Notes: generated from the sequence alone by a model not told the origin. Shown: positions 15,632 to 60,408, counted from the first letter of the stretch. The stretch is 64,000 bases of DNA from Candidatus Eiseniibacteriota bacterium (GCA_025351485.1 JANXVU010000089.1:6513-70512), one strand, 5' to 3'. Made by a program: numbers and translations.

Positions 15632-15640
15632 TTGGCAGTC

Positions 15641-15669
15641 TTGACAGGACTTTTGCCTTGTCGGTATGG
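15641..15669 (+). promoter_or_regulatory. Sigma-70-like promoter candidate TTGACA-N17-TATGGT upstream of the epimerase/dehydratase gene
   Basis: Perfect -35 hexamer TTGACA (15641-15646), 17 nt spacer, -10 TATGGT (15664-15669), about 100 nt upstream of the ATG at 15766. An AGGAGC RBS precedes the start codon. Confidence 0.4.
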
Positions 15670-15765
15670 TGCCCGGACGGTGTGCAAGGTCGGGCAGACG
15701 CCCCATTCGTGGCCCCCGGCCCCGGGCATCGGAAGGATTTCCCAAGCGCTAGGAGCGGTGAACCC

Positions 15766-16749: not shown

Positions 16750-16954
16750 CTCCGGGAAATCGAAAGGCGAGGCGGCTCGAGTAGAAGAGGCCGTTCTCCA
16801 ATGAGAACCAGCACCCCAGGGCCGGGACGGCTTTGGGGTGTTGTTGTTTGGGGGGATGGAGTGAATCAGAAGAGGGGAGCGCAAACGAAGATGGCGCTGC
16901 GAGTGGGGAAGCTTACGCCTCGCCCCCGCGCCGCCCTCCAGCTAATATCCCCCC

Positions 16955-32731: not shown

Positions 32732-34663
32732 CTAGTAGCTTCCGGAGGACGAATCCGGCGGCGCGTCGGACGAAGAGTCCGAGGCCTCCGTCGGCGGCGT
32801 TTCCTGCTCGGGGGCCGGGGCCGGCTCCGGCGCCGCCACGGGCTCGGGTAGGGCCGGCTCGGCCGCCACCGGCTCTTCCACCGGCTCCGGCTCCTTCAAT
32901 CCTTCCAGCACCGCCCTGGCCCACGCCGGTGCATTCTTCTTCCGGATGATGCCGCGAAAGCCCCTCGACTCGCTCCGGAGGTCGGGCGATGCCCCGGCCC
33001 TGAAACTGCATGTGATCCCGGTCTCTCCCGAATTGAACGCGCCGCCCCGCGCGGAGTACCGCGCGCCCGGACGCGTCACGCCCTCGGCCAATTCTTCCGC
33101 CGTGCCCGCGCCGCCCGCGATCATCTCGAAGATCTCCTTCACGAACTTGTCGCGGCAGATCTCGGAGACGTTGCCGTTCATGTCCACGAGCCCCCACGGG
33201 TTGGGCTTCTTCTGGCCCACCGGGTGGGTGACGCCATTCGAATTGTCGCTGAACCAGGCGCGCTCGGGGTCCTTGGAGTCGCCCCACGGGTAGCGGGTGC
33301 GGGTGCCGGCGCGGCAGGCGTATTCCCATTCGGCTTCGGACGGGAGCTCGGCGCCCACGGCGTCGCAGTACTTGCGCATTTCGTTCCAGCTCAGGTACAC
33401 CGCCGGGTTTTTTTCACCGCCGTCCAGGGAGATGGCATCGTTCAGGGCGCCGTGGCGGACTTCGATGTCGGTCAGGCCGTGCGGGTCGCGCTCCTTCTTG
33501 GGGGTGGGCATGTAGCGGGACGGCAGCACCTGCGCGCGCACCGAACAGAACTCGCAGCTCTTGTCGTGCCCGGTGTGCTGGGCCAGGAAACGCTCCCAGG
33601 TGATGGGAGTCTTGTCGATCAGGAACGTGTCGAGCGTCACTTCCACGGGCGGCTGTTCGGCCGGTGTGCCGTCCGCATCGCCCATCAGGAACGTGCCGGC
33701 CGGGACCAGCACCATCACCGACCCATCGGTGGTGCGGCGGAACTCCGGCAGGCCCTGCTCGTTCGTCCCCAGCGGCTCCAGGCGCGGGCCGGTCTCCTTG
33801 GCCGGGCCGGCGGCGGCGGTCGACCCGCCCGCTCCAGCCGGGGCGCTCCACGAGCCGGCGCCGATTTCGGGCATGGAACCGGACGAGCCGCCCAGCAGGG
33901 AAGAGAGCTCCGCGAGGCTGCTCATGCGCTGGTCGGGCTCGCGCGCCAGCAGCCTGGAGAGCAGCGCCCGGGCCGCTTCAGGGGCCGGGGACAGGTCGGC
34001 ATCCCGGGTCATGATGGCGGCGATGACCTGGCGCGGCGATCCCGTGAACGGCGGGCGTCCGGTGAGCATTTCGAAAAACACCGCGCCCAGGGAAAAGAGC
34101 GTGGCGCGCGAGCTGGCGCCGATCTCTTCGTATTCCGGAGCGGTGTAGGCCGAGAGCGTGAAGTTGGGGGGCAGCTTGCGAGTGGCGAACAGCGACGGCA
34201 GGAAGTAGTCGTCCAGCTTGGCGCCGTCATCCCGCAGGCACACCGCGTCCGGGTACAGCACCGGCATCGGGACGCCGCGGTCTTCCATGGTCTTCAGGGC
34301 CCGCGCCAGGTCGCGCAGGTAGCCCAGCGCCGCGTCAGCCCCCAGCGATCCGCCGGAGGCGATCCGGTCGCGCAGGGTGGTGCCCGCGGCTTCGGTCACC
34401 ACCAGCAGATCGCCGCCCTCGCTGTCGTTCAGCTTGAAATCCAGGATGCCCAGGAGCCCCACGGAAAAGGGCTCCGCGATGGTCTCCAGGTCCGAGGTCT
34501 GCGGGGAATGTTCCGGTGAAACCGACTTCAGGCTCGCCTTGACCCCGGACTGGCCGCGCACGCTGTACTGTTCGTAGATCTCGTTGCGGCGCAGCCCCAG
34601 CTCGACGGTCCAATCGCCGAGCGGGCTCTTGTCGGGGCTGTAGCGAAACCCGTCGCTAGACAA
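32732..34663 (-). CDS. Pseudokinase-like domain fused to a formylglycine-generating-enzyme (FGE/SUMF1) family domain
   Basis: The N-terminal about 270 aa has a kinase-like fold with an APE motif, but the Gly-loop, VAIK Lys, HRD and DFG motifs are degenerate. The C-terminal about 250 aa match the FGE-sulfatase domain (…FLMGD… NPWGL.DM.GNV.E…). It overlaps the upstream ClpB/V-like gene by 8 nt, so the two are probably co-transcribed. Confidence 0.65.
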   Translation of the reverse strand: MSSDGFRYSPDKSPLGDWTVELGLRRNEIYEQYSVRGQSGVKASLKSVSPEHSPQTSDLETIAEPFSVGLLGILDFKLNDSEGGDLLVVTEAAGTTLRDRIASGGSLGADAALGYLRDLARALKTMEDRGVPMPVLYPDAVCLRDDGAKLDDYFLPSLFATRKLPPNFTLSAYTAPEYEEIGASSRATLFSLGAVFFEMLTGRPPFTGSPRQVIAAIMTRDADLSPAPEAARALLSRLLAREPDQRMSSLAELSSLLGGSSGSMPEIGAGSWSAPAGAGGSTAAAGPAKETGPRLEPLGTNEQGLPEFRRTTDGSVMVLVPAGTFLMGDADGTPAEQPPVEVTLDTFLIDKTPITWERFLAQHTGHDKSCEFCSVRAQVLPSRYMPTPKKERDPHGLTDIEVRHGALNDAISLDGGEKNPAVYLSWNEMRKYCDAVGAELPSEAEWEYACRAGTRTRYPWGDSKDPERAWFSDNSNGVTHPVGQKKPNPWGLVDMNGNVSEICRDKFVKEIFEMIAGGAGTAEELAEGVTRPGARYSARGGAFNSGETGITCSFRAGASPDLRSESRGFRGIIRKKNAPAWARAVLEGLKEPEPVEEPVAAEPALPEPVAAPEPAPAPEQETPPTEASDSSSDAPPDSSSGSY

Positions 34664-37163
34664 GCTTCACCACCACCTGTCCGTTCTCGGCGGTCACCAG
34701 GGCCTTTTTCCCCTCGGTCGAGTCCTCGCCGATCAGCAGGCGCGCCAGCGGGCTCATCACGCGCTCGTCGATCACTCGCGCCACCGGGCGGGCGCCCATC
34801 TCCGGGTCGTAGCCGTCGTGGGCCAGGATGTCGCGGGCGTCCTTGCTGATCTCGAACTTCACGCTCTGCTCGTCGAGCAGCTTCTGCACACCCTTGAGCT
34901 GCAGATCCACGATCTTGCCCACCTGCGGCTCGGTCAGCTGGTGGTAGACCACCAGCTTGTCGAAACGGTTGAGCAGCTCGGGACGCAGCCCCGCGCCGAT
35001 GAGCCGCTCGCGCAGTTCCTTGTCGTCCACCTGGACGCCGCGGGCGTCGTGCTCCGCGATCCAGGTGCCCGAGAGGTTGCTGGTCAGGATCACCACGGTG
35101 TTGGAAAAGTCCACCAGCCGGCTCTGCCCATCGGTGAGGCGCCCGTCGTCCAATACTTGCAGGAGCGGGTCCAATACCTGGGGATGCGCTTTTTCGATTT
35201 CGTCGAACAGGATCACCGAGTACGGCCGGCGCAGCACCGCGTTGGTGAGCGCGCCGCCGGCTTCGTAGCCAACGTAGCCCGGCGGGGGGCCAGTCATGCG
35301 CTGCACGGTGTGCTCGCCCTTGAACTCGGACATGTCGAACCGGATCATGGCCTTCTCGTCGTTGAACAGGAAGGCGGCCAGCGCCTTGGCCAGCTCGGTC
35401 TTTCCGGTGCCGGTCGGTCCCAGGAACAGGAAACGTCCCACCGGCAGGTTCTTCTTCTTCAGCCCGGTCCGCCCGCGCCGCACCGCGTCGCCCACCGCGG
35501 CCACCGCGTCCTCCTGGCCGATCACGCGCTCGTGCAGGTACTCTTCGATGTGCTGCAGCCGCTCTCGCTCGTCGCCCATCATGCGGTGCACCGGGATGCC
35601 GGTGCGGATGGAAACGCGGCGCGCCACTTCCACGTCGGTCACTTCCTTTTTCAAATCCGCGATGTGGCGGAGCATCTCCTTGTGGAGATTTTCAGCGGCC
35701 ACGTCCTCTTTGATCAGCCCGCGGTCGCGCAGGGCCCGCTCCAACTGCTGCACCGGTCCCTCGGGGGGCTCCACGCCGTCGGGGCCGGCCACGGGGGGGG
35801 CGGCTCCGCTTTCCAGCGCCGGCTTGGCCAGCTCGGCCATCTCGCACAGGATCCGCACGTCGGCCGCGGCCTCGTCCAGCAGGTCCACGGCCTTGTCGGG
35901 CAGGAAGCGGTCCGGGATGAACTTCTTGGACAGCTTCACCGCCGAGTCCAGCGCGCCCTCGGCGATGGTGACGCCGTGGTGCTTCTCGTACTTGGGCTTC
36001 ACGCCCTTCATGATCTTCAGGCACGCCTCGAAATCCGGTTCCTCGATGTCCACTCGCACGAACCGGCGCGCGAATGCCGCGTCGGCCTCGATGTGCTTGC
36101 GGTACTCGCCCACCGTGGTCGCGCCCAGCACCCGCAGCTCGCCACGCGCCAGGGCGGGCTTCAGGATGTTGGCCGCGTCCATGCCGCCGCCGCCGCCGCC
36201 GGCGCCCAGCAGCATGTGGATCTCGTCTACAAACAGCACCACGTTGCTCTGGGCGGCGAGGTCCGCGAGCAGCTTCTTGAGCCGCTCCTCGAACTCGCCC
36301 TTGTACTTGGCGCCGGCCACCATGCCGGACAGGTCCAGCGCCAGCACCCGGGCGCCCTGCAGGAAGCTGGGCACGGTCTTCTGGACGATCGCCAGTGCCA
36401 GGCCCTCGGTGATGGCGGTCTTGCCCACGCCGGGCTCTCCGACCAGCACCGCGTTGTTCTTGCGGCGCCGGGCGAGCACCTCGATGGTCATCAGGATCTC
36501 TTTTTCGCGCGCGATCACCGGGTCGAAATGGCCCAGGCGGGCCTCGGCGGTGATGTCCTGGCAGTAGAGGACCGTGCTGGAAGCTCCGCCCGCGCGGGCG
36601 CCGCCTGGGGCCGCGCCCTCGGCCGCGCCTCCGCCTGAGGCTTCGCCGCCCACCATGGCGGCAGTGCTGCGGATCCTGGTGATGGCGTCCTTCACTCCCT
36701 TGGCCTTTAAGCCGATGGCATCGCGGGTCGCCGCGGGGATTCCGCCATCCCCGGAACACAGGGCTATGAGCAGATGCTCCTCGCCCACCTCCCGGTCCTC
36801 CAGCACCCCGCGCTCGGTTTCCGCCACCTCCAGCGCGCCGCTGAGGGCCGTGGAGACAGGCGGATCGAACGCCGGGCGCGAGGGTCGGTCCTCGTCATCC
36901 AGGCATTCTTCCACGATGGCGCGCGTGAGCACGATGTCCTTGCCCATCTGCGAGAAGATCTCAGGAAGAATGCCGTCCTCGGGCACCAGCAGCGAGAAGA
37001 ACAGGTGCAGCGGGTGCACCTCGGAGTGCCCGTGCTCCTTGGCGATCTCCTTGGCGCGGGCCAGTGCATCGGAAGCGCGTGGGCTCCAGCGGGTAATCGG
37101 CATGGTTGGGACTTCCCCCGGGAAGATTATGGTCAAGGGCGCGCGTAAGCCGCGCAGAGGCAC
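34656..37163 (-). CDS. ClpB/ClpV-family double-ring AAA+ ATPase (candidate T6SS TssH/ClpV; short middle domain)
   Basis: Clp N-domain, two AAA modules (GEPGVGKTAI… and FLFLGPTGTGKTELAKA…), sensor/ClpB_D2-small region. The inter-NBD M-domain is only about 75 aa, shorter than in canonical ClpB. It lies about 6 kb from the tssBC block. Confidence 0.8.
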   Translation of the reverse strand: MPLRGLRAPLTIIFPGEVPTMPITRWSPRASDALARAKEIAKEHGHSEVHPLHLFFSLLVPEDGILPEIFSQMGKDIVLTRAIVEECLDDEDRPSRPAFDPPVSTALSGALEVAETERGVLEDREVGEEHLLIALCSGDGGIPAATRDAIGLKAKGVKDAITRIRSTAAMVGGEASGGGAAEGAAPGGARAGGASSTVLYCQDITAEARLGHFDPVIAREKEILMTIEVLARRRKNNAVLVGEPGVGKTAITEGLALAIVQKTVPSFLQGARVLALDLSGMVAGAKYKGEFEERLKKLLADLAAQSNVVLFVDEIHMLLGAGGGGGGMDAANILKPALARGELRVLGATTVGEYRKHIEADAAFARRFVRVDIEEPDFEACLKIMKGVKPKYEKHHGVTIAEGALDSAVKLSKKFIPDRFLPDKAVDLLDEAAADVRILCEMAELAKPALESGAAPPVAGPDGVEPPEGPVQQLERALRDRGLIKEDVAAENLHKEMLRHIADLKKEVTDVEVARRVSIRTGIPVHRMMGDERERLQHIEEYLHERVIGQEDAVAAVGDAVRRGRTGLKKKNLPVGRFLFLGPTGTGKTELAKALAAFLFNDEKAMIRFDMSEFKGEHTVQRMTGPPPGYVGYEAGGALTNAVLRRPYSVILFDEIEKAHPQVLDPLLQVLDDGRLTDGQSRLVDFSNTVVILTSNLSGTWIAEHDARGVQVDDKELRERLIGAGLRPELLNRFDKLVVYHQLTEPQVGKIVDLQLKGVQKLLDEQSVKFEISKDARDILAHDGYDPEMGARPVARVIDERVMSPLARLLIGEDSTEGKKALVTAENGQVVVKLV

Positions 37164-37312: not shown

Positions 37313-37753
37313 GTGGCAGTCAATCTGAACGTACCCCTGGTGGCCACGATCAGCCATGCCAAGAGCTGGCACGCCGCCGCGAGCATGGTGAACTTCTACT
37401 TCCGCCCCGGAGCCCGGTTCTGGTCCCCGGACCAGGAAGGCGCCGGCGGCGGGGTCATCGACAACGAGGACTTCGTCCTGGCCCGCAAGCAGGGCCTGAT
37501 GCCGTTCTACTTCACCGGCAAGTGGGAGCCCAAGCTGATCGAAAGCGTGCTGCTCTCTCGCGGCCCCATGTGGTGCGTGGGCCGGTGGTACGGGCCGGTG
37601 GGCGTGATCGTCATCACCGGAGTGGACGGCGACCGCATATTCTTCAACGATCCGGTCGAGCCGGCGGTCAAGGCCGAGAAGATCACCTGGTTCAACCAGA
37701 ACCTGGCCCGCCAGGCCAACGCCGTCATGGTCAAGGATCCCTCCTCGCTGTAG
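37313..37753 (+). CDS. Small hypothetical protein with a Peptidase_C39-like (papain-fold) C-terminal signature; catalytic residues not clearly conserved
   Basis: Strong RBS GAGGAGG, then GTG. The motif …GVIVITGVDGDRIFFNDP… resembles the '…HYVVVTGYDxxxVYVNDP' block of C39-like peptidases. Coding potential (GC3) is good. Confidence 0.4.
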   Translation: MAVNLNVPLVATISHAKSWHAAASMVNFYFRPGARFWSPDQEGAGGGVIDNEDFVLARKQGLMPFYFTGKWEPKLIESVLLSRGPMWCVGRWYGPVGVIVITGVDGDRIFFNDPVEPAVKAEKITWFNQNLARQANAVMVKDPSSL

Positions 37754-37810
37754 GCGGGACCGGTTCGCCCCATGTCCTTGGATCACCTGATCTCCGGGAG
37801 GGAAACCCCA

Positions 37811-38466
37811 TGAGCGAACACCTTGCCGCGCCCGGCGAGTGCCTGGCGAGCCTCAGCGAGACGTTCGGCTTTCCGGACTTCCACACCATCCTGGACCACC
37901 CGGAAAACAGCGCGCTCAAGACCGCCCGCCCCAATCCCAACATGCTGGTGCCGGGCGACCTGGTGCATATTCCCGACCCGGCGCCCAAGAAGGCCAGCCT
38001 TTCGGAAGACCTGCAGCACGAGATCCGGATCAAGCAGCCGGAGGCCCGCTTCAAGCTCAAGCTGATGGATGACCAGGGAGTGGTGTTCGCGGGAAAGAAG
38101 TTCAACCTGAAGATCGGCTCCACCGAGATCACCGGGAACACCGACGGCGACGGGATGATCAACGAGATCATCCCGCCGGGGTTGACTTCGGGCGAACTGA
38201 CCTTCTTTCCCGAGGGGCGCGATGACGTGCTGGAGGGCTACTTGATCCCGCTCAGCCTGGGGAATCTCAGACCTCCCGATACCACCGACGGCCAGAAGAT
38301 GCGTCTCCAGAATCTGGGCTACCCGATCGGCCCCCTGGGAACGACCGTGGACGAGAGGACCCAGCGCGGCATTCGCATGTTCCAGCGCGACCAGGCCCTG
38401 ACTGCCAACGCCACGCTGGACGCTCCCACCACGGCCAAGCTCAAGCAAGTCCACGACGGCAACTGA
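37811..38466 (+). CDS. LysM domain + peptidoglycan-binding (PG_binding_1-like) domain protein, paralog 1
   Basis: N-terminal LysM-like segment (…GECLASLSETFGF…ILDHPENSALKTARPNPNMLVPGDLVHIPD). C-terminal PG_binding_1-like segment (…RLQNLGYPIGPLGTTVDERTQRGIRMFQRDQALTANATLDAPTTAKL). GGAGGG RBS. Confidence 0.6.
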
Positions 38467-38484
38467 CCCGAGGATTCGAGGCGC

Positions 38485-38961
38485 ATGCCATCCTTCGCGC
38501 GATCCAGCCCAGGAACCAACCACCACAACACCCTGATCCTGCCCCGGGTGAAAGTCTTCTTTCAGCGGTTTCCCGGCACCCTGGGAAGCGACGCGGACCG
38601 GGGTATCGCCAACGTGCCCTTCGTGTTCAAAGTGGACGGCCGCCTGGTGGGCAAGGGAACGACCGCCGCGGACGGGAGCATCACCGTGTTCACCCTGCCG
38701 GCGGTGGGGCTCGCGGTGCTCAATATTTTCGGCACGGACTACAACCTGATCCGGGTGCCGCTCGAGCCGGCCCCGGATATCGCCGGCGCCCAGCGCAGGT
38801 TGCAGCTCCTGGGCTACATGTCCGCCTCGGTCACGAATACGCTGGAGATCAATGCCGGCGAGGCGCTCTTCCAGTTCCAGGCAGACAACCCGCCGCTCGA
38901 CCCGCAGGGCGACCTGCCGGATCCGACCACCACCAAGCTCAAATCGGTTTTCGGGGAATAG
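38485..38961 (+). CDS. Hypothetical protein with a C-terminal PG_binding_1-like domain
   Basis: C-terminus …AQRRLQLLGYMSASVTNTLEINAGEALFQFQADNPPLDPQGDLPDPTTTKL fits the peptidoglycan-binding repeat consensus. The middle region resembles that of the LysM paralogs. Confidence 0.45.
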   Translation: MPSFARSSPGTNHHNTLILPRVKVFFQRFPGTLGSDADRGIANVPFVFKVDGRLVGKGTTAADGSITVFTLPAVGLAVLNIFGTDYNLIRVPLEPAPDIAGAQRRLQLLGYMSASVTNTLEINAGEALFQFQADNPPLDPQGDLPDPTTTKLKSVFGE

Positions 38962-38964
38962 GCC

Positions 38965-40065
38965 ATGACGATCGACATCACTTATCACAAGCGCAAGCGG
39001 CTCAGCCTGGTGCGGTTCTCCCGCGCCACCACGGGCAACCCGGTGATCGACAAGCCCGATCCGGATACCCGCGGGTTCGCCACGCCGGAGTTTGGCGCGG
39101 TGTTGCCGGTGACGGAGAACAAGACCGTGTTCGTGCGGCTGAATCGCGACAACGTGGACCCGGGCGCCGACCTGTTCGTGAAGTCTTCGGACGAGACCAT
39201 CTTCACCGTGGCGGGCCTCACCGGGGGCAAACTTCCCACCGGCGCGACGCAGGACATCCAGGTGGCGGCCAAGGGGGGCGGCACGCCCAAGAAGGCCTCG
39301 CTGGAGGTGCGGTTCGGGGCCCTCGACGGACCGATCATTTCGAAACTCGCGGTGTTCGTGTTCATCAAGCGCACCCTGCGGATCACCCCGCACAACCTGA
39401 GCATCAAGTCGGCCTCCGCGGCCGCGATCCCCAGCGCCGTGGACATCAATTCGGTGATCGGCCTGGTGCGGGCCATCTGGGCGCAGTGCGGCCTGGAGCT
39501 CACCGTTTCGGCCACCGTGACGGATGCGCATACTTTCGCGGTTGCCGGCCGGGTGGGCCGGGGCATTGAGCGGAACAAGGTCCTGAGCGCCCGATTCATC
39601 CCCAACACCATCAACGCCTATTTTGCGCACCAGCTGGAAGGATCCACCCCCGGAACGCTGGGCCTTGGATTCAGCCGAAAATTCATCACCGACAACGGGT
39701 TGCCCAACCCGGGCATCCTCCTTGGGGACGGGAACGTGGCGGGAACCGACCGGAGCACCGACAACATGTGGCTGGCCAACGACCTGGCCCACGAGATCGG
39801 ACACTTCCTGAGGCTCGACCACACCGAGAGGAAGGAGCCGCCCGACAATCGCACCGACCTGTGGTCCAGGCGCCGGCTCATGCACAATTTCAACACCCAG
39901 GGCAGTTCCGGCGACTTCCACGACCAGGTTGGATACGGGGACCGCGCGCCCGGCGACGTGCGGCGCGGCTGCTTCGTGAGCATGAAGGACCTGTCGCAAC
40001 TCACGACCGACGGCGAGGTCGCCGTGGTGCGCAGCACCATCGAGTCCGCGGCCGGGCCCTACTGA
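38965..40065 (+). CDS. Metzincin-like zinc metallopeptidase (HEIGHFLRLDH motif): candidate secreted effector/toxin
   Basis: HExxH…H zinc-binding motif at residue about 290 (HEIGHFLRLDH) with a downstream Met (…RRRLMHNF…). No signal peptide. Sits between the ClpV-like and PAAR/tssB genes. Confidence 0.55.
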   Translation: MTIDITYHKRKRLSLVRFSRATTGNPVIDKPDPDTRGFATPEFGAVLPVTENKTVFVRLNRDNVDPGADLFVKSSDETIFTVAGLTGGKLPTGATQDIQVAAKGGGTPKKASLEVRFGALDGPIISKLAVFVFIKRTLRITPHNLSIKSASAAAIPSAVDINSVIGLVRAIWAQCGLELTVSATVTDAHTFAVAGRVGRGIERNKVLSARFIPNTINAYFAHQLEGSTPGTLGLGFSRKFITDNGLPNPGILLGDGNVAGTDRSTDNMWLANDLAHEIGHFLRLDHTERKEPPDNRTDLWSRRRLMHNFNTQGSSGDFHDQVGYGDRAPGDVRRGCFVSMKDLSQLTTDGEVAVVRSTIESAAGPY

Positions 40066-40087
40066 GCCCGAGGGAGAGGGGATCGAA

Positions 40088-40855
40088 ATGTCCACGCTGG
40101 TCGAACTGGTCCGAGCCAAGGACTACACCGCCTGCCTCGCCGTGCGCGAGGAGGGAGCGGCTGCCGTGCCCGCGCTGCTCGGGTTTGCCAACGACCGCGA
40201 CCCCGAAGTGCGCGAGCTTGCGCTTCACTGCCTGGACGAGATCGGGGGACCGGAGGCCGAACGCGCTTTCTGCGTGGGGCTCCTGGATCGAGACGCCCAG
40301 GTGCGCTCGGCGGCCATGAAGGGCGCCGGCCACCACTGCACCACGGCTTCGGTGGAGGCCCTGAATCACGCCTACGAGCAGAGCCCGGAGCCGGTGGTGC
40401 GCGAAAACGTGATGCTCATCCTGGGCGCGCTGCCGGGCATGGAAGCCGCGAAGCTGCGGGGCCGCTGGGAGCGCGAGAAGCTGCCGCTGGCCCACGACGG
40501 CGGGCGCGCCGCGATGGCCCGGCTCGGGGATCCGAAGGCCCAGGAAGAGTTTTCGGCGCGGCTCCTGGCTTCGGCCGGGACCGAGCGCGTCCGGCTCTTC
40601 GAATACGCGGGCTTCATCCGCCAGCCGTTCTTGCTGAAAACGCTCCTGCCGATCCTGGACGATGGTTCGGATGGGATCCGGATCGGCGCCGATGGAGTCA
40701 CGGAATGTCCCTACGCCCTGAAGTTCCGCGACATGGCCGTCAACCTGGCCGCCGCCATCAGCGGTCAGCGGTTCAGTTTCGAGATCCGGCCCAACATCAA
40801 CTACACCGACTCCCAGGTGTCCGAAGTCCGGCAGTACCTCGCCGGGCTGCGATGA
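40088..40855 (+). CDS. HEAT-repeat (PBS-lyase-type) protein, cytoplasmic paralog
   Basis: Repeated …DPEVRELALHCL… / …DAQVRSAAMKG… HEAT-like units. Shares a C-terminal block (…IRIGADG…) with the next gene. Confidence 0.55.
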   Translation: MSTLVELVRAKDYTACLAVREEGAAAVPALLGFANDRDPEVRELALHCLDEIGGPEAERAFCVGLLDRDAQVRSAAMKGAGHHCTTASVEALNHAYEQSPEPVVRENVMLILGALPGMEAAKLRGRWEREKLPLAHDGGRAAMARLGDPKAQEEFSARLLASAGTERVRLFEYAGFIRQPFLLKTLLPILDDGSDGIRIGADGVTECPYALKFRDMAVNLAAAISGQRFSFEIRPNINYTDSQVSEVRQYLAGLR

Positions 40856-41742
40856 GCCCGCGGGGCCGGCTCGCGCTGCTGGCGGCCATCGCCCTCGGGC
40901 TGGCCGCCTGCGGCGCATCTCCGCGCGGGGCCTCCGCCCCGAATTCCTCGCCCGCCCGCGTCTCCTCCGACAGCCTGCTCCAGTCGATCGAGGCCAAGGT
41001 CCGCGCGCACGACTACTCCGCGCAGAACGACGCGCGGGGACTCGGCGACGGGGCCTTTCCGCTGCTGGCGCGGCTCGCCACGGACCGCGATCCCGACGCC
41101 CGATCGCTGGCGCTGCTGTGCCTCGAGAGCGCTGGCGGTAGCCGCGGTGGCCGGGTGCTGGGTGCGGCGCTGAACGATTCTTCCGCCGACGTTCGCATGG
41201 TCGCCTCCCAGGCGCTGGGCCGGCGCCCATTCCCGGACGCCCTGCCGTACCTGCTATCCGCCGTACGAACGTCGGCCGATCCCGCGATCCGACGCAACTG
41301 CGCGCTGGCGGCGGGAATGATTCCCGGGGCCAGCGCCTCGAAGCTGCGCGAGAGCAGCCGCGCCGAGAAGGATCCCGATGTGCAAATGGCCCTGGTCCAG
41401 GCGCGCGCGCGCCTTGGCGACGGGGAAGCGCGCCGGGAGTTCCAGGCCGGGCTCACGTCCGCCCAGGGCCAGGTCCGCGTTTTATGGCTGGAACGCTGCA
41501 GGTACGTCGGAGAGCCCTGGGTTCTGTCCCCGCTGGCGCCATGGCTGGACGATACGCACCCCGCGGTGCGCATCGGGGCCGACGGCCTTCCGGGCCCGCA
41601 GTACCTTCGCGTGTGCGACGTGGTGATCAACCTGGCGGCTGAATTAGGGAAGCCCAGGTGGAGTTTCAAGACCGGGCCGGCGAAGAACTATTCGGAGGAA
41701 GAACGTAAGGAAGCCCGGCGGGTCCTGGGCTCCATTCGTTGA
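40852..41742 (+). CDS. HEAT-repeat lipoprotein (paralog of the preceding gene)
   Basis: Signal peptide with lipobox (LALLAAIALGLAACG). HEAT-like repeats (…DPDARSLALLCL…, …SADVRMVASQAL…, …DPAIRRNCALAAG…). ATGA overlap with the upstream gene. Confidence 0.55.
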   Translation: MSPRGRLALLAAIALGLAACGASPRGASAPNSSPARVSSDSLLQSIEAKVRAHDYSAQNDARGLGDGAFPLLARLATDRDPDARSLALLCLESAGGSRGGRVLGAALNDSSADVRMVASQALGRRPFPDALPYLLSAVRTSADPAIRRNCALAAGMIPGASASKLRESSRAEKDPDVQMALVQARARLGDGEARREFQAGLTSAQGQVRVLWLERCRYVGEPWVLSPLAPWLDDTHPAVRIGADGLPGPQYLRVCDVVINLAAELGKPRWSFKTGPAKNYSEEERKEARRVLGSIR

Positions 41743-41773: not shown

Positions 41774-41808
41774 AAAGAGGCCGGGGCCCAGGGGGCACCG
41801 GCCTCTTT
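41774..41808. terminator. Bidirectional stem-loop (11 bp perfect stem AAAGAGGCCGG / CCGGCCTCTTT) between convergent genes
   Basis: A perfect inverted repeat can be read directly. It lies between the + strand HEAT lipoprotein gene and the - strand DUF1795-like gene. Confidence 0.5.
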
Positions 41809-41843: not shown

Positions 41844-42320
41844 CTACTTCAAAGAAATCGTGAACGCCTTGACGATCTCGTCGAACTGCTCCTCCAGCCG
41901 CGCGAAGGCCGATTCCGGGGCGCTGGCGGTGATGATGAACATCACCGGGTCCTTGTAGACGTACCACTGCGCCTGGCGCACGACCACGTCCTTGGGGTTC
42001 TTCCAGGCGTACTGGACGTAGTTTGCGGAGCGCCCCGCGAGGCTGCGGCGCTCCTTCTTGATCTCCTTGTAGTCGGGCAGCTGGCCCTGCAGATCGAGCA
42101 TCAGTCCCTGCGCGAAGCCTTCCACATCCTTGAGCCCGGGAATATTGTCCTGGGTCACGGCCAGCGAGGGCTGCATGTCCTGGATGGTCTCCGGGAGCGC
42201 CGCCAGGTAGACGGAGCGGTCGGTCCAGCCTTCGGGCAGGGCCATCTTGAAACATGCGCCCCTGAGCTCGGGAATCACGGGCTTGGTGGGCGGGTGCGCG
42301 GGCGCCTTGGCATCGGCCAT
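41844..42320 (-). CDS. DUF1795/DcrB-like protein: candidate Eag-type T6SS effector chaperone
   Basis: About 158 aa. Pattern …VYLAALPE…LAVTQDNIP… …YVQYAWKNP… …FIITASAPESAF… resembles the DUF1795 fold. Located immediately downstream of a PAAR protein that carries hydrophobic segments. Confidence 0.5.
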   Translation of the reverse strand: MADAKAPAHPPTKPVIPELRGACFKMALPEGWTDRSVYLAALPETIQDMQPSLAVTQDNIPGLKDVEGFAQGLMLDLQGQLPDYKEIKKERRSLAGRSANYVQYAWKNPKDVVVRQAQWYVYKDPVMFIITASAPESAFARLEEQFDEIVKAFTISLK

Positions 42321-42330
42321 GGAATCTCCG

Positions 42331-43017
42331 TTAGGACTCGACGGTCCAGGAATCCTTGTCGAGGTCGGTCAGTGTGAGTTCGCAGTTGCCGGCGGGCAGG
42401 CCGAATTCCACCACCATGCCGTCGTTCCGCGAGTGGCCCTTGCGGATCTTGCCGTCGGGCAGTTTCAAGTCGTAGGCCACGGCCACGGCGGGGTCTCCGC
42501 TTGCCAGGGTCAGCTTGGCCTTGAAGAAGTGGCGCTGCATGGGGCAGGGGGGTGGCGGTCCGAGCCCGCCGCCGGCAGCCGCCCCGGCTGTTCCGGCCGC
42601 ACACACCGGGGCCGCGCCCGCCAGGGCGCCGCTCACCGCGCTCGAAGGGATCGCGGCGAGATCCAGGAGCCCCAGCAGAATGGCGACGAGCGCCATGAGC
42701 ATGTCCAGGATGGAAACCCCGATGTCCCCGATCAGGACGGCCGGAAATCCCATCACGATGGTCCCGCCGTGCCCGTGCAGGCTGGTCATGCGGGCGGCCG
42801 GCATGCCGCCGAAGAATACTCCCATGGATCCCATCATGATGGGCGCGGGCGGGCCCGTGGCGCACGCGCACATGCCGCCCACCACGGCCGCAGGCTGGCC
42901 CCCGATCATGACCGTCGGGCACCCCGGCGGCATGACGACGCCGCCCACGTGGGGCACCAGCACGGTGAACATCGGGCACACGTGGGGATCGCCAACTCGA
43001 GCGGCGGGGAATCCCAT
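42331..43017 (-). CDS. PAAR-domain protein with hydrophobic (TM-like) region and small C-terminal domain: candidate T6SS spike-tip/effector
   Basis: PAAR-like repeats (…ARVGDPHVCPM… GCPTVMIGGQPAAVVGGMCAC… GGMPAARMTSLHGHGG… VLIGD). Then a hydrophobic stretch (…SILDMLMALVAILLGLLDLAAIP…) and an about 70 aa C-terminal domain. Confidence 0.65.
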   Translation of the reverse strand: MGFPAARVGDPHVCPMFTVLVPHVGGVVMPPGCPTVMIGGQPAAVVGGMCACATGPPAPIMMGSMGVFFGGMPAARMTSLHGHGGTIVMGFPAVLIGDIGVSILDMLMALVAILLGLLDLAAIPSSAVSGALAGAAPVCAAGTAGAAAGGGLGPPPPCPMQRHFFKAKLTLASGDPAVAVAYDLKLPDGKIRKGHSRNDGMVVEFGLPAGNCELTLTDLDKDSWTVES

Positions 43018-43304
43018 GGGGCGCTTCCTCCGGGTGAGTGCGGGGTCAGGATCGGAAAATTACTTCGCCTAGACTGCACCAAATCGGGCCGGACTGCAAC
43101 GGCGCGTTCGGCCGATTCCGGGGGGCCGGGGCCGGGCAACAGGCGGATCAAAAATAAATCGTCAACCCACCCCCTATATAGAATGATCCCGCGATTTGTC
43201 GCTTGGCAAAGACGGGCCGCTGCCTTACGTTCACCCCCTGTAAAATTGTCCTATATCCAGCCTCGCGGCTGGTGCGTTCGAGCCCGCAACCACGGAGGAG
43301 TATC

Positions 43305-43754
43305 GTGCCGAAGCAGAAATTCATCGGCGCTCAGCACGAGCGAGAAGCGGATCTCACCATGGGGGTGGAGATCCTCGACACGAACAAGACCCTTTTCGTC
43401 GCGGCCATGAATGAGCAGGCCGGAGACAACCCCGAGCCGATCCAGTGCCGGACCATGGGCGAGGTGTTCGACACCTTCAAGCCCAAGGTCGAGATCACCG
43501 TGGAAGGCGAGGACGGAGCCAACTCGGACGCCGAGATCAAGTTCAACCGTGTGGGCGACTTCCTGCCGGAATCCGTCATCGAGCAGTCCCCGGAACTTCG
43601 CGCGCAGCACACCGAGCTCCTGCTGCTCAAGGACCTCATGAACCAGCTGCGCAACAACAAGAGCCTGCGCAAGGCGGTGGACTCTCCCGACCGGGAAGTT
43701 CTCATCAAGGGTATCCAGGCGGCGCGCGCGGCCATCGGCGTGAAGGAGAGCTAG
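43305..43754 (+). CDS. tssB: T6SS contractile sheath small subunit TssB (VipA-like)
   Basis: About 150 aa, GGAGGAG RBS + GTG. Sits immediately upstream of the large sheath subunit. Sequence features are typical of TssB (…KQKFIGAQ…EREADLTMGVEILD…). Confidence 0.75.
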   Translation: MPKQKFIGAQHEREADLTMGVEILDTNKTLFVAAMNEQAGDNPEPIQCRTMGEVFDTFKPKVEITVEGEDGANSDAEIKFNRVGDFLPESVIEQSPELRAQHTELLLLKDLMNQLRNNKSLRKAVDSPDREVLIKGIQAARAAIGVKES

Positions 43755-45256: not shown

Positions 45257-45655
45257 ATGGCGCAGGAACCCAAGCTCAAGGTGGATGGAACCGCGGTTCC
45301 CAACCTGCTCTCGGTCTCCTACGGCCTCCGGGCCGGCGTGGACCGTGACGGGCGTCCCACCCGCATGCTCATCTTCGACGGAATCACCATTCGCCGAATC
45401 GGCGATGCCAAGACGACCCTCGCCAACTGGGCGAAGGACCCCAAGGAAAAGAACCGCAAGAGCGGGGAGATCGAGTTCTTCGGGGACGCCGGCAAGGCCA
45501 TCAAGAAACTGACCTGGAAGAACGGGTTCGTGAAGCACTACGACCTCCGTTACAATCCCGAGGCTGACCATGTGGAAGAGACTGTCGTGATCCAGGCCGA
45601 AGAGATCAACTCCGGCGGGATGAAGATCGAATGCCACTGGGCCGACAAGCAATAG
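45257..45655 (+). CDS. hcp: Hcp-like inner tube protein (paralog 1)
   Basis: 132 aa, located between tssC and vgrG. Sequence is β-rich, similar in size to Hcp family members. Assignment rests mainly on size and synteny. Confidence 0.55.
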   Translation: MAQEPKLKVDGTAVPNLLSVSYGLRAGVDRDGRPTRMLIFDGITIRRIGDAKTTLANWAKDPKEKNRKSGEIEFFGDAGKAIKKLTWKNGFVKHYDLRYNPEADHVEETVVIQAEEINSGGMKIECHWADKQ

Positions 45656-45669
45656 CGGAGGAATAGAAC

Positions 45670-46089
45670 ATGCCGATTCGTCAAATCAAGGTGGAGATCG
45701 ACGGCAAGCACATTTCCAACGTGCTCGCCGTGGACTACGGCCTGGAAGTGAGCCACGACGCCGACGGCAGCCCGAGCGATGCCCGCCCGCGCCTTGCCCG
45801 CATCTGCGTCACCCGCAAGACCGATGATTCGACGCAGCTGGGGGACTGGGCCTGCAAGCCCTTCCGCGGCCACTTCAAGTCCGGCAAGATCAGCTTCTTC
45901 GCGCCGGACGAAGAGACCAAGGTGCAGTCCACCATGTCATGGACCGATGGGTTCGTGACCCTGTACCGCGAATGGGTGCCGGACGTGCAGACGCACCGCG
46001 GGGATCCGATGGTGGAGTACATCGAGATCTCGGCCCAGAAGATCAAGATCAACGATACGGAAGTGGACGCGGACACCTGGACCACCTAG
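45670..46089 (+). CDS. hcp: Hcp-like inner tube protein (paralog 2, divergent)
   Basis: 139 aa. Shares the N-terminal pattern (…I.V.IDG…VS..YGL…) with paralog 1. GGAGGA RBS. Confidence 0.5.
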   Translation: MPIRQIKVEIDGKHISNVLAVDYGLEVSHDADGSPSDARPRLARICVTRKTDDSTQLGDWACKPFRGHFKSGKISFFAPDEETKVQSTMSWTDGFVTLYREWVPDVQTHRGDPMVEYIEISAQKIKINDTEVDADTWTT

Positions 46090-48170: not shown

Positions 48171-49031
48171 ATGGCCCTTCCATTCCCGGTCCGGCGGTCC
48201 ATGTCCGGCGGCGCCGGCGGTTCGGCGCTGCCGCCCCTGCGTCTGCCCTTCACCATCGTGAGCACCGCCTCCAGCGGGCGCGCGCCCGCCGCGGGCCGGC
48301 GCAGCTGGGGCAACCGGCTGGGGCTCTGGTGGACCGATGCCGAGGAGGGCGAACCGGGCGTGGTGGTGACCGGCCTGCTGCCGCACGGGCCCGCATCCGC
48401 GGGCGGCGCGGTCAAGGTTGGCGACCTGGTGGTGGAAGTGGAAGGGGCGCGCGTCACGACCCTGGGAGACATCACCCGTTTTCTGGAAAACCAGGGCCCC
48501 GGACCGCTCCGCATGACCGTCAAGCGCGGCCCGCACGAGGAGCACACGGTGGTGCTGGACGTCCCGCCCGAGCCCGGAGAGGCCGCCGCGTCTGCCGCGG
48601 GGCCCGCCGGGGGCTACTCGGCCCGTGTTCCCACGACCGACCTCCTCGACTCGCTCAAGCGCAACATCGAGTGGATCCTGGGCAACCCGGTGCAGAGCGA
48701 GATCACCCACCCGGGAGTCTCCGCCGATCCCGAATTTGGCTGCCTGGGGGCGGACCTTGAATTCAGCCTGCGCACGGTGGGCCTGTCGGAAATCCGAAAC
48801 GCCATCGTGCAGTGCGAGCCCCGGCTCAAGGAAGTGGAAGTGGAGTCGGCCGAGTTCGAGGTGCGCGAAGAGGGCGAGGTCTCGCTCAAGCCGGGGATCC
48901 GCGTTCACGCCCTGATGTCCGGCACCGGGGAAAAGATCAAGATCGAATTGGAAGTCGCGGGCCTGGCCCGGGCGCGGTTCACCAACCGCCGCCGCACATC
49001 GGTGGAAGACGCGGGACTGGAGGGGCGGTAG
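48171..49031 (+). CDS. tssE: PDZ domain fused to gp25-like baseplate wedge protein (TssE-like)
   Basis: The N-terminal about 140 aa contain a PDZ-like fold (…GVVVTGLLPHGPASAGGAVKVGDLVVEVEGARVTTLGDI…). The C-terminal about 130 aa match the GPW/gp25 family (…LLDSLKRNIEWILGNPVQSEI…AIVQCEPRL…). High GC3 across both parts. Confidence 0.6.
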   Translation: MALPFPVRRSMSGGAGGSALPPLRLPFTIVSTASSGRAPAAGRRSWGNRLGLWWTDAEEGEPGVVVTGLLPHGPASAGGAVKVGDLVVEVEGARVTTLGDITRFLENQGPGPLRMTVKRGPHEEHTVVLDVPPEPGEAAASAAGPAGGYSARVPTTDLLDSLKRNIEWILGNPVQSEITHPGVSADPEFGCLGADLEFSLRTVGLSEIRNAIVQCEPRLKEVEVESAEFEVREEGEVSLKPGIRVHALMSGTGEKIKIELEVAGLARARFTNRRRTSVEDAGLEGR

Positions 49032-53343: not shown

Positions 53344-54288
53344 ATGCCCACGCTAGTCGAAAACATCGACAACCTGTTTGCGGAGATCGGCGCGCTCGAA
53401 AAGGGCGGCGCCTTTTCCCCGGATTCGTTCAACCAGAACCTGAAGGGCATCCTTTCGGCGTTCGAGCTGCTCCGCAACCAGCAGGAGCTGGGCTCGATGG
53501 CCGACGACGCCCTGTACACGCGCATCCGCGAGGTGGAGCCCACCGAGTCGCAGCTGCGCTTCCTGACCTCCCACATCCTGGGGATGTACCTGGAAGCGTG
53601 GGCCCACGGACCTTCGGGCTACCGCCGCTCCTACCAGGACCTGCTGCGCTTCCGGCCCGACGACGCGCGAGTGGACGGCGACTTCATCGAGATCGTGCTC
53701 ATGCCGCGCCTGCTGGTGCTGCGCGACCTGGGCGGCCAGGCCGACCTGGGCTACCACCTGTTGATGCACCTGGCCGACTATCTGCAAACGTTCGGCGCTC
53801 CCTCCGGCCTGCCCGCCAGGCCCACGCGCGCCGACCTGGAGGCGATGGGCCCGTCCAGGCTGCTGCTGGGTTTCGCGCGGCGCCGGCTGGCGTTCCCGGG
53901 CAAGCGCCTGGTGGACATGCCGGACGCCTGGGAATACGGGCTGGCCCGCGAAAAGTACTTCGAGTCGCTGCGGGTCCGGGGCAAGAAGCTGCAGCTGGAC
54001 CTGGAAGCCTACCTGCTCCGGCTGGACCTGCTGAGCAAAGTGCCCTGGTGGAAGCGCCTGCTGGATGCCATCGGGCGCTTCTTCCGCGCGATCGGCACGT
54101 GGCTGGGAGCCAGGCTGGAAAAGCTGCCGGCCGGCGGAGTGTTCTGGTCGGCGTTCTGGGTGGTTTTTTCGCTCGCGGTGATGGTGGGCGTGACCCTGCT
54201 GTGGCTCTCCTTCTATGAACATCGCCTGCGGGACTTCCGCGGCAAGGGCCTGAACGCGCAGACGCGCGACATGGAGGTGGTCAAGTGA
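53344..54288 (+). CDS. Cytoplasmic protein with single C-terminal TM anchor: candidate TssL/DotU-like membrane-complex component
   Basis: 314 aa. One predicted TM helix near the C-terminus (…GVFWSAFWVVFSLAVMVGVTLLWLSF…) with a short tail. Topology and position after tssK resemble TssL; there is no sequence-level proof. Confidence 0.35.
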   Translation: MPTLVENIDNLFAEIGALEKGGAFSPDSFNQNLKGILSAFELLRNQQELGSMADDALYTRIREVEPTESQLRFLTSHILGMYLEAWAHGPSGYRRSYQDLLRFRPDDARVDGDFIEIVLMPRLLVLRDLGGQADLGYHLLMHLADYLQTFGAPSGLPARPTRADLEAMGPSRLLLGFARRRLAFPGKRLVDMPDAWEYGLAREKYFESLRVRGKKLQLDLEAYLLRLDLLSKVPWWKRLLDAIGRFFRAIGTWLGARLEKLPAGGVFWSAFWVVFSLAVMVGVTLLWLSFYEHRLRDFRGKGLNAQTRDMEVVK

Positions 54289-59751: not shown

Positions 59752-60408
59752 TCAGCTGCCGTGGACGTCCCGCAGCTTGTTCCGGGTCACGGGGCCGGCC
59801 ACCCCGTCCACCTTGAGGCCGTGGTCGCACTGGAATTCCTCGATGGCCGAGTGGAGCCTGCGTTCGTCCACCTTGTCCCCGGGGCCCGCCTTTTCCGCCA
59901 GGCCCGCGTCGTAGCCCAGATTATTGAGCCGGGCCACCATGCCGGACGGGGTGTCCGGGGGATCCAGGTGCCCGACCCGGATCGGAAGCTCGATCTGCAG
60001 GGCGGGAAAGACAATCGAGCCGACCTCGGCTTCCACCGGGATCACCAGTTCCACCTGGCCCTTGCCGTCGGTGGTGACCTCGCGCGGCTCGCCGCCCACG
60101 GCAATCTTGCCCTTGGCGCTCGCGATGGGCTTCAGGTTCCAGTCCTGAAAGACCAGCCGCAGGTGGAGCTCTACCCGGTGGACCTTGAACTTGTGCTGCT
60201 GGCCGGTCTTGAGCGAGACGACCTTCTGGCGCTTCGGATCGGGAATAAACACCACGTCCCCGGGCGCCAGCACGTTGGGATTCTGCCGAAGGGAGCGCAG
60301 GTTCGAGTTCTGGGGATGGTCCCAGATGGGGTTGATGCCGTCGAACCCGTGGCTCTTGGCGATGCGGGAGAGGTGCTCGCCCTGCTGGACGGTGTGGCTG
60401 GCCGACAT
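59752..60408 (-). CDS. LysM domain + PG_binding_1-like domain protein, paralog 2 (homolog of 37811-38466)
   Basis: N-terminal LysM (…HTVQQGEHLSRIAKSHGF…IWDHPQNSNLRSLRQNPNVLAPGDVVFIPD) and C-terminal peptidoglycan-binding repeat (…RLNNLGYDAGL…FQCDHGLKVDGVAGPVTRNKL). Same architecture as the protein at 37.8 kb. Confidence 0.6.
   Translation of the reverse strand: MSASHTVQQGEHLSRIAKSHGFDGINPIWDHPQNSNLRSLRQNPNVLAPGDVVFIPDPKRQKVVSLKTGQQHKFKVHRVELHLRLVFQDWNLKPIASAKGKIAVGGEPREVTTDGKGQVELVIPVEAEVGSIVFPALQIELPIRVGHLDPPDTPSGMVARLNNLGYDAGLAEKAGPGDKVDERRLHSAIEEFQCDHGLKVDGVAGPVTRNKLRDVHGS

Follow-up and report, generated by a model that had tools for sequence, protein, structure and literature searches.

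The metallopeptidase pairs known as Tpe–Tpi are represented by the C-terminal domain of VgrG2b with PA0261 in P. aeruginosa and by Tpe1–Tpi1 in A. baylyi (PMC6899460), and a Reprolysin_4 candidate effector, SESEF3709_03438, was predicted in silico in Salmonella SPI-6 (PMC10469887). Imm-HEAT immunity proteins were described in polymorphic toxin systems (Zhang et al. 2012, PMC3482391), which gives a precedent for immunity by HEAT-repeat proteins, and the Acinetobacter proteins Tse4/Tpe4 and Tae17 are LysM-containing peptidoglycan hydrolases that act as type VI secretion system (T6SS) effectors (PMC6833914). The locus described here lies in a stretch of 64,000 nucleotides from a Candidatus Eiseniibacteriota bacterium (GCA_025351485.1 JANXVU010000089.1:6513-70512), which is called the window below and whose positions are counted from its first letter. 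An operon at 37313–41742, located inside a T6SS cluster, encoded a predicted zinc endopeptidase (MP), two small proteins with peptidoglycan-binding features (p218 and p158), and two paralogous HEAT-repeat proteins (HEAT-A and HEAT-B). This operon is probably a T6SS cargo-effector module, in which MP would act with p158 and probably p218, HEAT-B would provide immunity, and HEAT-A would serve as a cytoplasmic handler of the enzyme.

The MP gene (38965–40065, plus strand, like all genes of the operon) encoded a protein of 366 residues. The GC content was about 68% across the window and real genes were told apart by GC content at third codon positions, which was 0.89 for MP and matched the neighbouring genes. 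The zinc-binding motif HEIGHFLRLDH (residues 276–286, codons 39790–39822) contained all three histidines and the glutamate in metzincin register. Its eighth position, a glycine in the consensus HExxHxxGxxH, is arginine in MP, and the glycine is not conserved in the family (consensus AHEIGHFFxLxH). Conservation was scored on an alignment of 107 sequences, in which residues His276, Glu277, Gly279, and His280 were invariant and residues His286, the third zinc ligand, and Met306 were kept in at least 90% of the sequences. Residue Met306 (RRLMHNF, codon 39880–39882), the candidate Met-turn, was located 20 residues past the third histidine and aligned, in sequence position only, with the Met-turn region of ADAMTS-5. 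The N-terminus (MTIDITYHKRKRLSLVRF...) had no hydrophobic signal segment, and it was conserved and signal-less across the 107 homologs; a conserved N-terminal stretch runs from Arg12 to Gly37 and includes an invariant Asp34.

The AlphaFold2 model of MP was obtained with a predicted local distance difference test score (pLDDT) of 95.1 and a predicted template modelling score (pTM) of 0.93. It was composed of two domains, an N-terminal immunoglobulin (Ig)-like β sandwich (approximately residues 40–135) and an α/β metzincin catalytic domain (approximately residues 136–366). In a Foldseek comparison with the PDB, the top match of the model was ulilysin (3lum_A; E = 2.8e-6, probability 1.00), and the other matches were PapD, ASH, and Ig folds on the N-terminal domain. 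The family profile of MP matched ADAMTS-5 over the region from HExxH to the Met-turn (E = 2e-4) as well as trimerelysin, and the single sequence matched BaP1, a snake-venom metalloproteinase, over the helix of the active site. By profile and Foldseek, the catalytic domain was nearer to ulilysin and the adamalysins than to the matrix metalloproteinases (MMPs). A split zymogen of the MMP kind, in which p158 would be the pro-domain, was rejected, since p158 has no cysteine and hence no PRCGxPD switch.

A homolog search over 5.8 billion proteins gave 113 homologs of MP with 360–414 residues, nearly all of them free of Pfam domains, and a profile search over 1.84 billion representatives gave 222 clusters at E ≤ 1e-30 and 368 at E ≤ 1e-10. 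MP itself had no Pfam or NCBIfam match at E ≤ 0.01 and stayed below the curated Pfam gathering thresholds. Only distant relatives passed the Pfam cut-offs, namely P0107 on Reprolysin_3 (34.6 bits), P0108 and P0110 on Reprolysin_5, and a fusion protein of Burkholderia (locus L040) on Reprolysin_5 with 28.4 bits against a cut-off of 27. PADLOC returned nothing for MP or p158, and generic HEAT-ARM matches only for both HEAT proteins. Pfam scans of MP and its homologs gave no DUF4157 match, and the fold and profile matches were metzincins; MP was therefore placed outside the Tpe/DUF4157 family. Taken from its sequence and its model, MP is a predicted intact metzincin-type zinc endopeptidase outside any curated family. 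The original prediction had named this protein, with its length, its motif, and its missing signal peptide, as a metzincin-like peptidase; the open reading frame agreed with that description in every respect, and the class assignment was supported by the matches to ulilysin, ADAMTS-5, and a snake-venom metalloproteinase.

Two partner genes were located directly upstream of MP. The p158 gene (38485–38961) ended with a gap of 3 nt before the MP start codon and was preceded by the p218 gene (37810–38466), and neither protein had a signal peptide, in the window or in its family. The 158-residue p158 gave no Pfam or NCBIfam match itself, and its homologs carried PF01471. Its model (pLDDT 70) contained a β sandwich and a three-helix bundle resembling PG_binding_1, with weak local fold similarity both to transthyretin-like domains and to the peptidoglycan-binding domains of SleB and phiKZ gp144. 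Natural fusions of p158 to MP were found in the homologs P0189, P0228, P0248, and P0268 and in Burkholderia locus L040, as MP homologs of 540–670 residues. In P0189, residues 22–168 aligned to p158 (E = 6e-11) and residues 186–536 to MP (E = 4e-36), and the gene stood in the order PAAR-fusion-HEAT-DcrB; the order VgrG-fusion-HEAT-like was found for another fusion. PG_binding_1 followed by peptidase was the order in the separate genes as well as in the fusions. Because of these natural fusions, p158 is a predicted dedicated partner or subunit of MP.

The 218-residue p218 was composed of a LysM-like region, a β domain, and PG_binding_1 (residues 164–211), and its residues 73–215 were homologous to p158. 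In the p218 family alignment (n = 20), PG_binding_1 was present in 20 of 20 sequences and LysM in 12 of 20, and the family profile matched the peptidoglycan-binding domains of L,D-transpeptidases, CtpB, and SleB, as well as LysM domains. Genes similar to p218 were also found ahead of other candidate effectors in vgrG islands (L029, 5189–8751; L030, 5019–8817; L004, 12287–17095), where the candidates behind them were a 683-residue protein, a Peptidase_C39_2 protein, a 368-residue protein, or an OmpA and PG_binding_1 protein followed by a 768-residue protein. Since p218-like genes also precede these candidates, the pattern suggests that p218 is a more general VgrG-associated cargo module. A further paralog of p218, 34% identical and likewise with PG_binding_1, was located at 59752–60408 on the minus strand, 3 kb beyond the T6SS cluster; it adjoined genes similar to 4-hydroxyphenylpyruvate dioxygenase and homogentisate dioxygenase, and no recognisable effector stood beside it.

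The gene context was compared in 41 distinct loci with full-length MP relatives, which were collected by look-ups of the exact proteins and by a scan of 185,579 species genomes and whose neighbouring genes were annotated by tblastn with the window proteins. The p158 gene was directly upstream in 36 of 44 MP genes, p218 was within 4 kb in 32 of 44, and a HEAT gene was directly downstream in 36 of the 41 loci. As judged by gene order, the conserved cassette is p218, p158, MP, and HEAT. Linkage to VgrG and other T6SS markers was counted within 10 kb in the 31 loci of at least 14 kb: VgrG was present in 24 of 31, PAAR in 14, DUF4123 in 6, and any T6SS marker in 26 of 31. PAAR genes flanked the cassette in many loci. 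A typical arrangement was VgrG-p218-p158-MP-HEAT-PAAR in Planctomycetota, and a typical orphan island, in a Byssovorax-like metagenome-assembled genome (MAG), had the order VgrG-PAAR-DUF4123-x-p158-MP-HEAT-VgrG-...-Tae4. The hosts belonged to at least eight phyla and included Myxococcota, Acidobacteriota, Gemmatimonadota (Gemmatimonadales), Bacteroidota, Planctomycetota with Phycisphaerae, Zixibacteria, a cyanobacterial MAG, and Proteobacteria (Rheinheimera, Alteromonadaceae), and more distant versions were found in Burkholderia and Cupriavidus. As a putative T6SS cargo effector, MP combined linkage to vgrG, PAAR, and adaptor genes with an N-terminus free of a Sec or Tat signal and an adjacent candidate immunity gene.

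Two metagenomic relatives, L069 (MP 78% identical) and L070 (MP 61% identical), kept the order ClpV-C70-p218-p158-MP-HEAT-A-HEAT-B(lipobox)-DcrB-PAAR-TssB of the window. Among these three, TssB was 95–97% identical and the cassette proteins were 55–91% identical; such much faster divergence of the cassette is a pattern typical of effector modules. In Burkholderia puraquae CAMPA 1040, a cultured strain (L040, 6574–13111), a canonical VgrG was directly followed by a 645-residue p158::MP fusion, together with two tandem distant HEAT-like proteins that were 82% identical to each other, both had signal peptides, and carried R-A-R-D. This tandem pair indicates that duplication of the putative immunity gene recurs. 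Distant versions were also carried by the cultured B. lata R-18110, Cupriavidus, and Alteromonadaceae XY-R5. In one Phycisphaerae locus, two tandem MP genes were located before a single HEAT gene (L015, 9483–11824), and two loci of Tepidisphaeraceae (L021 and L025) each had two complete p218-p158-MP-HEAT cassettes in series. In L025, the first HEAT protein had a lipobox and the second had no signal peptide.

The HEAT-A gene (40088–40855; Pfam HEAT_2, E = 2e-13), preceded by a predicted ribosome-binding site GAGGGAGAGGGG, encoded 255 residues, and no signal peptide was found from any upstream start. The HEAT-B gene (40852–41742; Pfam HEAT_2, E = 7e-18) encoded a predicted lipoprotein of 296 residues, whose start MSPRGRLALLAAIALGLAAC contained the lipobox LAAC with Cys20 (nt 40900–40911). 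The two genes overlapped by ATGA at 40852–40855, through which they are predicted to be translationally coupled. The two proteins were 37% identical over 255 residues (E = 1e-47) and shared the ...RIGADG... block, and their sequence matches in the PDB were alphaRep/HEAT proteins. The homolog search with HEAT-B was swamped by generic HEAT words and returned only six close relatives.

Conservation in the HEAT family was expressed as 26 columns, each kept in at least 75% of the sequences. A conserved C-terminal block contained the element R-x-C-D, with residues Arg253 (93%), Cys255 (90%), and Asp256 (98%) in HEAT-B numbering; in HEAT-B it reads R-V-C-D (residues 253–256, nt 41608–41619). HEAT-B retained 26 of 26 conserved columns. 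HEAT-A of the window and of L069 departed at 7 of 26, with loss of the near-invariant cysteine, and HEAT-A of the window has K-F-R-D in place of R-x-C-D. HEAT-A orthologs were found in L069 (88% identity) and L070 (55%), and both loci also had HEAT-B orthologs with a lipobox. In a neighbour-joining tree, a method that is not robust at such divergence, HEAT-B fell in with the HEAT proteins that accompany the nearest MP relatives (L001 and L071), and HEAT-A lay in another clade. HEAT-A and HEAT-B are therefore best described, on their alignment and the tree, as old paralogs from different branches that were stably kept, not as a recent duplication. HEAT-B has the features of the canonical periplasmic form and is the immunity candidate, and HEAT-A those of a derived, divergent cytoplasmic form.

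Export signals of the HEAT partners were scored from the most upstream start, 27 by script and that of L030 by eye. A signal peptide or lipobox was present in 28 of 42 HEAT partners and absent from 14, and outside the clade of the window it was present in 25 of 36. In public annotations, the HEAT partner was often called from an internal start, which cut the lipoprotein signal (L004, 11257–12204; L011, L014, and others), so that annotation alone would wrongly suggest a cytoplasmic protein. The HEAT and MP trees mirrored each other, with a Mantel r of 0.87 between the distance matrices that was reached by 0 of 2000 permutations.

The original prediction had described two HEAT paralogs, one signal-less and one with a lipobox, that share a C-terminal block, had noted an ATGA overlap, and had proposed that the paralogs and the peptidase are a candidate effector and immunity unit. 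The features of the two paralogs were recovered as described, and across many phyla the homologs of the peptidase occurred alongside VgrG, PAAR, and DUF4123. The homolog loci did not show the conserved non-T6SS neighbourhood expected of a housekeeping enzyme, and co-variation of the HEAT proteins with MP across genomes was present in both gene linkage and distances. The proposed unit was right to include the HEAT partners and too narrow, since p218 and p158 also belong to it.

The following mechanism is proposed for the module. MP, together with p158 and probably p218, would be mounted on the VgrG/PAAR spike and delivered into adjacent bacteria, and the loading may take place through the transthyretin-like β domains, to which the C-terminal domain of the PAAR protein is weakly alike. 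The peptidoglycan-binding domains would hold the MP complex on the sacculus of the prey, where MP would then cut either a peptide of the wall or an envelope protein associated with it. The peptidoglycan-binding partners without signal peptides and the two thirds of HEAT partners with export signals point to action in the periplasm of the target and to periplasmic immunity by HEAT. In sister cells, the HEAT-B lipoprotein would bind and block the incoming MP in the periplasm, possibly by its near-invariant R-x-C-D/Asp element. HEAT-A most likely binds newly made MP in the cytoplasm of the producer, as a safeguard before export or as a chaperone.

Several observations weigh against this mechanism. 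The model of p158 was of moderate confidence only. Metzincins are protein endopeptidases and not classical peptidoglycan hydrolases, so that the link of MP to the wall comes from the partner domains alone. No T6SS gene was located within 10 kb in 5 of the 31 long loci. The cysteine of R-x-C-D was replaced in HEAT-A and in the Burkholderia homologs, where it appears to be dispensable, and a mechanism of the Cys-switch type is hence not general. Finally, 11 of the 36 HEAT partners outside the window clade were signal-less and were the sole HEAT protein of their locus. In these 11 lineages with a sole, signal-less, motif-keeping HEAT protein, either protection of the cytoplasm is needed or HEAT has another role, and the idea of immunity in two compartments keeps some plausibility for this reason.

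That idea, the one of the original prediction, holds that MP poisons target cells in the cytoplasm as well as in the periplasm and that HEAT-A and HEAT-B are equivalent immunity proteins, one for each compartment. Signal-bearing and signal-less HEAT partners do both exist (28 versus 14), and a sole signal-less HEAT protein that keeps R-x-C-D was found in L001, L002, L008, and L016; the pair of HEAT-A and HEAT-B was also maintained in three genomes whose MPs have diverged to 61% identity. However, the loss of 7 of 26 conserved positions, including the cysteine, from HEAT-A of the window and L069 does not fit an equivalent inhibitor, the partner proteins point to the cell wall, and no other examined locus pairs a cytoplasmic with a periplasmic HEAT protein, the tandem pair of Burkholderia having signal peptides on both members. 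The two paralogs and their two localisations were thus confirmed, whereas their equivalence was not established, with HEAT-A divergent and the paralogs old, and this explanation is considered unlikely.

At a similarly low level of confidence, a further proposal extends the preferred cargo-effector mechanism. The HEAT proteins might be latency factors that act in trans on a metzincin without a pro-domain, with R-x-C-D/Asp blocking the zinc site as pro-peptides do in cis. The cytoplasmic copy might then hold MP until it is loaded on the spike, the lipoprotein copy might guard the periplasm from attack by sister cells, and p218-type proteins might be a general wall anchor for diverse VgrG cargo in at least eight phyla. 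This proposal is regarded as speculative.

It is less probable still that one HEAT gene of the pair came from a different cassette, as an orphan immunity gene directed against the divergent MP of competitors instead of the MP of its own operon. Such an origin would leave the differing localisation signals unexplained, and the two HEAT genes are coupled by the ATGA overlap and were co-retained in three genomes. The paralogs are only 37% identical and occupy different branches, HEAT-B beside the proteins that go with the closest MPs and HEAT-A in another clade, as an orphan gene would, yet this placement comes from neighbour-joining trees that are not robust at this divergence. The double cassettes or tandem MP genes of L015, L021, and L025 also agree with an orphan origin, and they indicate that cassettes meet and recombine.

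There is very little likelihood that MP, p158, and p218 are accessory factors that remodel the wall of the producer for T6SS assembly, similar to TagX or MltE, with HEAT as their regulator. The peptidoglycan-binding domains, the position of the genes inside the core T6SS cluster, and a cluster without a recognisable TssJLM membrane complex would be compatible with such a role. All three proteins lack a signal peptide, however, and hence have no Sec route to the periplasm of the producer. The cassette was also found in orphan islands where vgrG is accompanied by DUF4123 adaptors and by further effectors, Tae4 among them, in loci with canonical VgrG of the proteobacterial type, and in duplicate in some loci; it evolves far faster than TssB, and its inhibitor-like partner co-diversifies with MP.

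Equally improbable is a role of the HEAT proteins as loading adaptors or chaperones for MP, comparable to Tla3 for Tle3, with immunity absent or encoded elsewhere: a cytoplasmic protein first annotated as immunity did turn out to work as an adaptor (PMC6560169), HEAT repeats serve generally as scaffolds for protein binding, and one third of the HEAT partners are signal-less, but two thirds are exported or lipoproteins and are in the wrong place for an adaptor, because loading occurs in the cytoplasm. The P. aeruginosa proteins Tla3 (adaptor) and Tli3 (immunity) were rejected as a precedent for paralogs, a relationship that the paper does not state, and Tla3 is used here only as a precedent for a cytoplasmic adaptor.

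The operon of the window began with a gene for a 146-residue papain-fold protein of the C70 (AvrRpt2-like) type (37313–37753; Pfam Peptidase_C70, E = 6e-13). In L069 and L070, as in the window, the C70-like gene headed the operon; in the other cassette loci it was not detected. In all three, a serine (KSWHA) occupied the position that aligns with the nucleophile cysteine, and in the window and L069 the position of the catalytic histidine was glycine or alanine. The protein is probably a pseudo-peptidase. HEAT-B was considered as immunity to the C70-like protein, which is unlikely because that protein has neither the catalytic cysteine nor the histidine. At the other end of the operon, a GC-rich hairpin followed by UUUC (41775–41807, plus strand) was located between the convergent HEAT-B and DcrB-like genes. 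Its minimum free energy was −35.2 kcal/mol (z = −5.2), 0 of 200 shuffles folded as well, and it is the likely end of the operon.

The DcrB/DUF1795-like protein (158 residues; 41844–42320, minus strand; Pfam DcrB, E = 2.8e-14) is a possible Eag-type chaperone. Its gene was also located 3' of HEAT in L012 and L074 and was syntenic in L069 and L070. The adjacent PAAR protein (228 residues; 42331–43017, minus strand; Pfam PAAR_motif, E = 3e-19) combined its PAAR domain and a hydrophobic segment with a C-terminal β domain that was weakly similar to the β domains of p158 and p218 (E = 0.003–0.005), and it is a candidate spike tip for loading. MP had been placed originally between the ClpV-like ATPase (34656–37163, minus strand) and PAAR/tssB (TssB, 43203–43754, plus strand); this position was correct, and the C70-like, p218, p158, and DcrB-like genes in between had gone unmentioned.

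The T6SS cluster of the window contained ClpV, PAAR, TssB, TssC, two Hcp, VgrG, PDZ-TssE, TssF-like, TssG, and TssK-like proteins, and no TssJ, TssL, TssM, or TssA was recognised in it. The cluster (34656–56528) looked non-canonical. TssC matched PF17541 and both Hcp proteins matched PF17642, which are Bacteroidota-type families, and TssB matched PF05591 weakly. The tandem Hcp (TssD) genes, of 132 and 139 residues, were located at 45257–46089 on the plus strand between TssC and VgrG, and the same pair was found in L070. TssE was fused to a PDZ domain (48171–49031). The cluster ended with a gene for a 314-residue protein (53344–54288) and one for a DO-GTPase2 protein (54285–56528), and ClpV was flanked by an FGE-sulfatase and kinase gene (32732–34663). 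Further upstream, a region at 11765–19945 on the plus strand contained a very large open reading frame of 1288 residues, which carries domains of asparagine synthase and glycosyltransferase and may be two genes taken as one, as well as a 996-residue Ser/Thr kinase with STAND-ATPase and TPR domains.

If the proposed mechanism is true, the cassette represents a widespread and undescribed T6SS effector family of approximately 220 sequence clusters, and metzincins would be a new enzyme class in the role of an interbacterial toxin. To our knowledge, a metzincin has not yet been shown experimentally to be an interbacterial toxin. The module would consist of a protease that is targeted to the wall by separate peptidoglycan-binding subunits and neutralised by a HEAT-repeat lipoprotein, with a cytoplasmic HEAT paralog that may handle the enzyme before export. 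The cassette could be used as a marker for T6SS cargo in phyla whose T6SS biology is almost unexplored, and Burkholderia puraquae and the other cultured carriers are tractable for experiments.

When the cassette was compared with the Tpe–Tpi pairs, both contained an HExxH zinc metallopeptidase linked to the T6SS or VgrG, with periplasmic action and an immunity protein exposed to the periplasm, which in the case of MP are inferred. However, Tpe proteins are DUF4157 zincins, whereas MP is a predicted metzincin with a third histidine and a candidate Met-turn and has no DUF4157. The Tpi proteins, which are small, are not of the HEAT type, and Tpe has no separate genes for peptidoglycan-binding partners. 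The Salmonella candidate SESEF3709_03438 resembled MP as an M12B-like metzincin predicted in a T6SS cluster with an adjacent gene for a signal-peptide protein, and it supports the idea of metzincin-type T6SS effectors. By its description it is set apart from MP as a protein of 243 residues with one domain, without the Ig-like domain, the p158 and p218 partners, or HEAT.

Ulilysin and pappalysin (M43B) and the adamalysins with ADAM(TS) (M12B) shared with MP the catalytic fold, the helix of the active site, and the distance to the candidate Met-turn. Unlike ulilysin and the adamalysins, MP fell below the Pfam thresholds, did not conserve the motif glycine, had no signal peptide or cis pro-domain, and combined an N-terminal Ig-like domain with a bacterial T6SS context. 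Imm-HEAT proteins and the HEAT partners of MP were both all-α HEAT-repeat proteins encoded beside a toxin or candidate toxin gene and proposed to neutralise it by binding. The described Imm-HEAT proteins go with Tox-REase-7 and Ntox34 toxins and not with a metallopeptidase, whereas the partners of MP were mostly lipoproteins or secreted proteins with a specific C-terminal R-x-C-D...N-Y block.

The Acinetobacter effectors Tse4/Tpe4 and Tae17 were similar to the cassette as VgrG-linked cargo in which a LysM or peptidoglycan-binding module is combined with a hydrolase. In these effectors, one polypeptide holds both the binding and the catalytic domain, and the enzymes belong to the M23, CHAP, or amidase types, whereas in the MP cassette the binding modules were mostly separate small proteins and the enzyme was a predicted metzincin. 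Literature searches found no description of a p218-p158-MP-HEAT cassette. Within a well-known kind of system, the cassette is a candidate new effector–immunity family with an unusual architecture that is split over several proteins.

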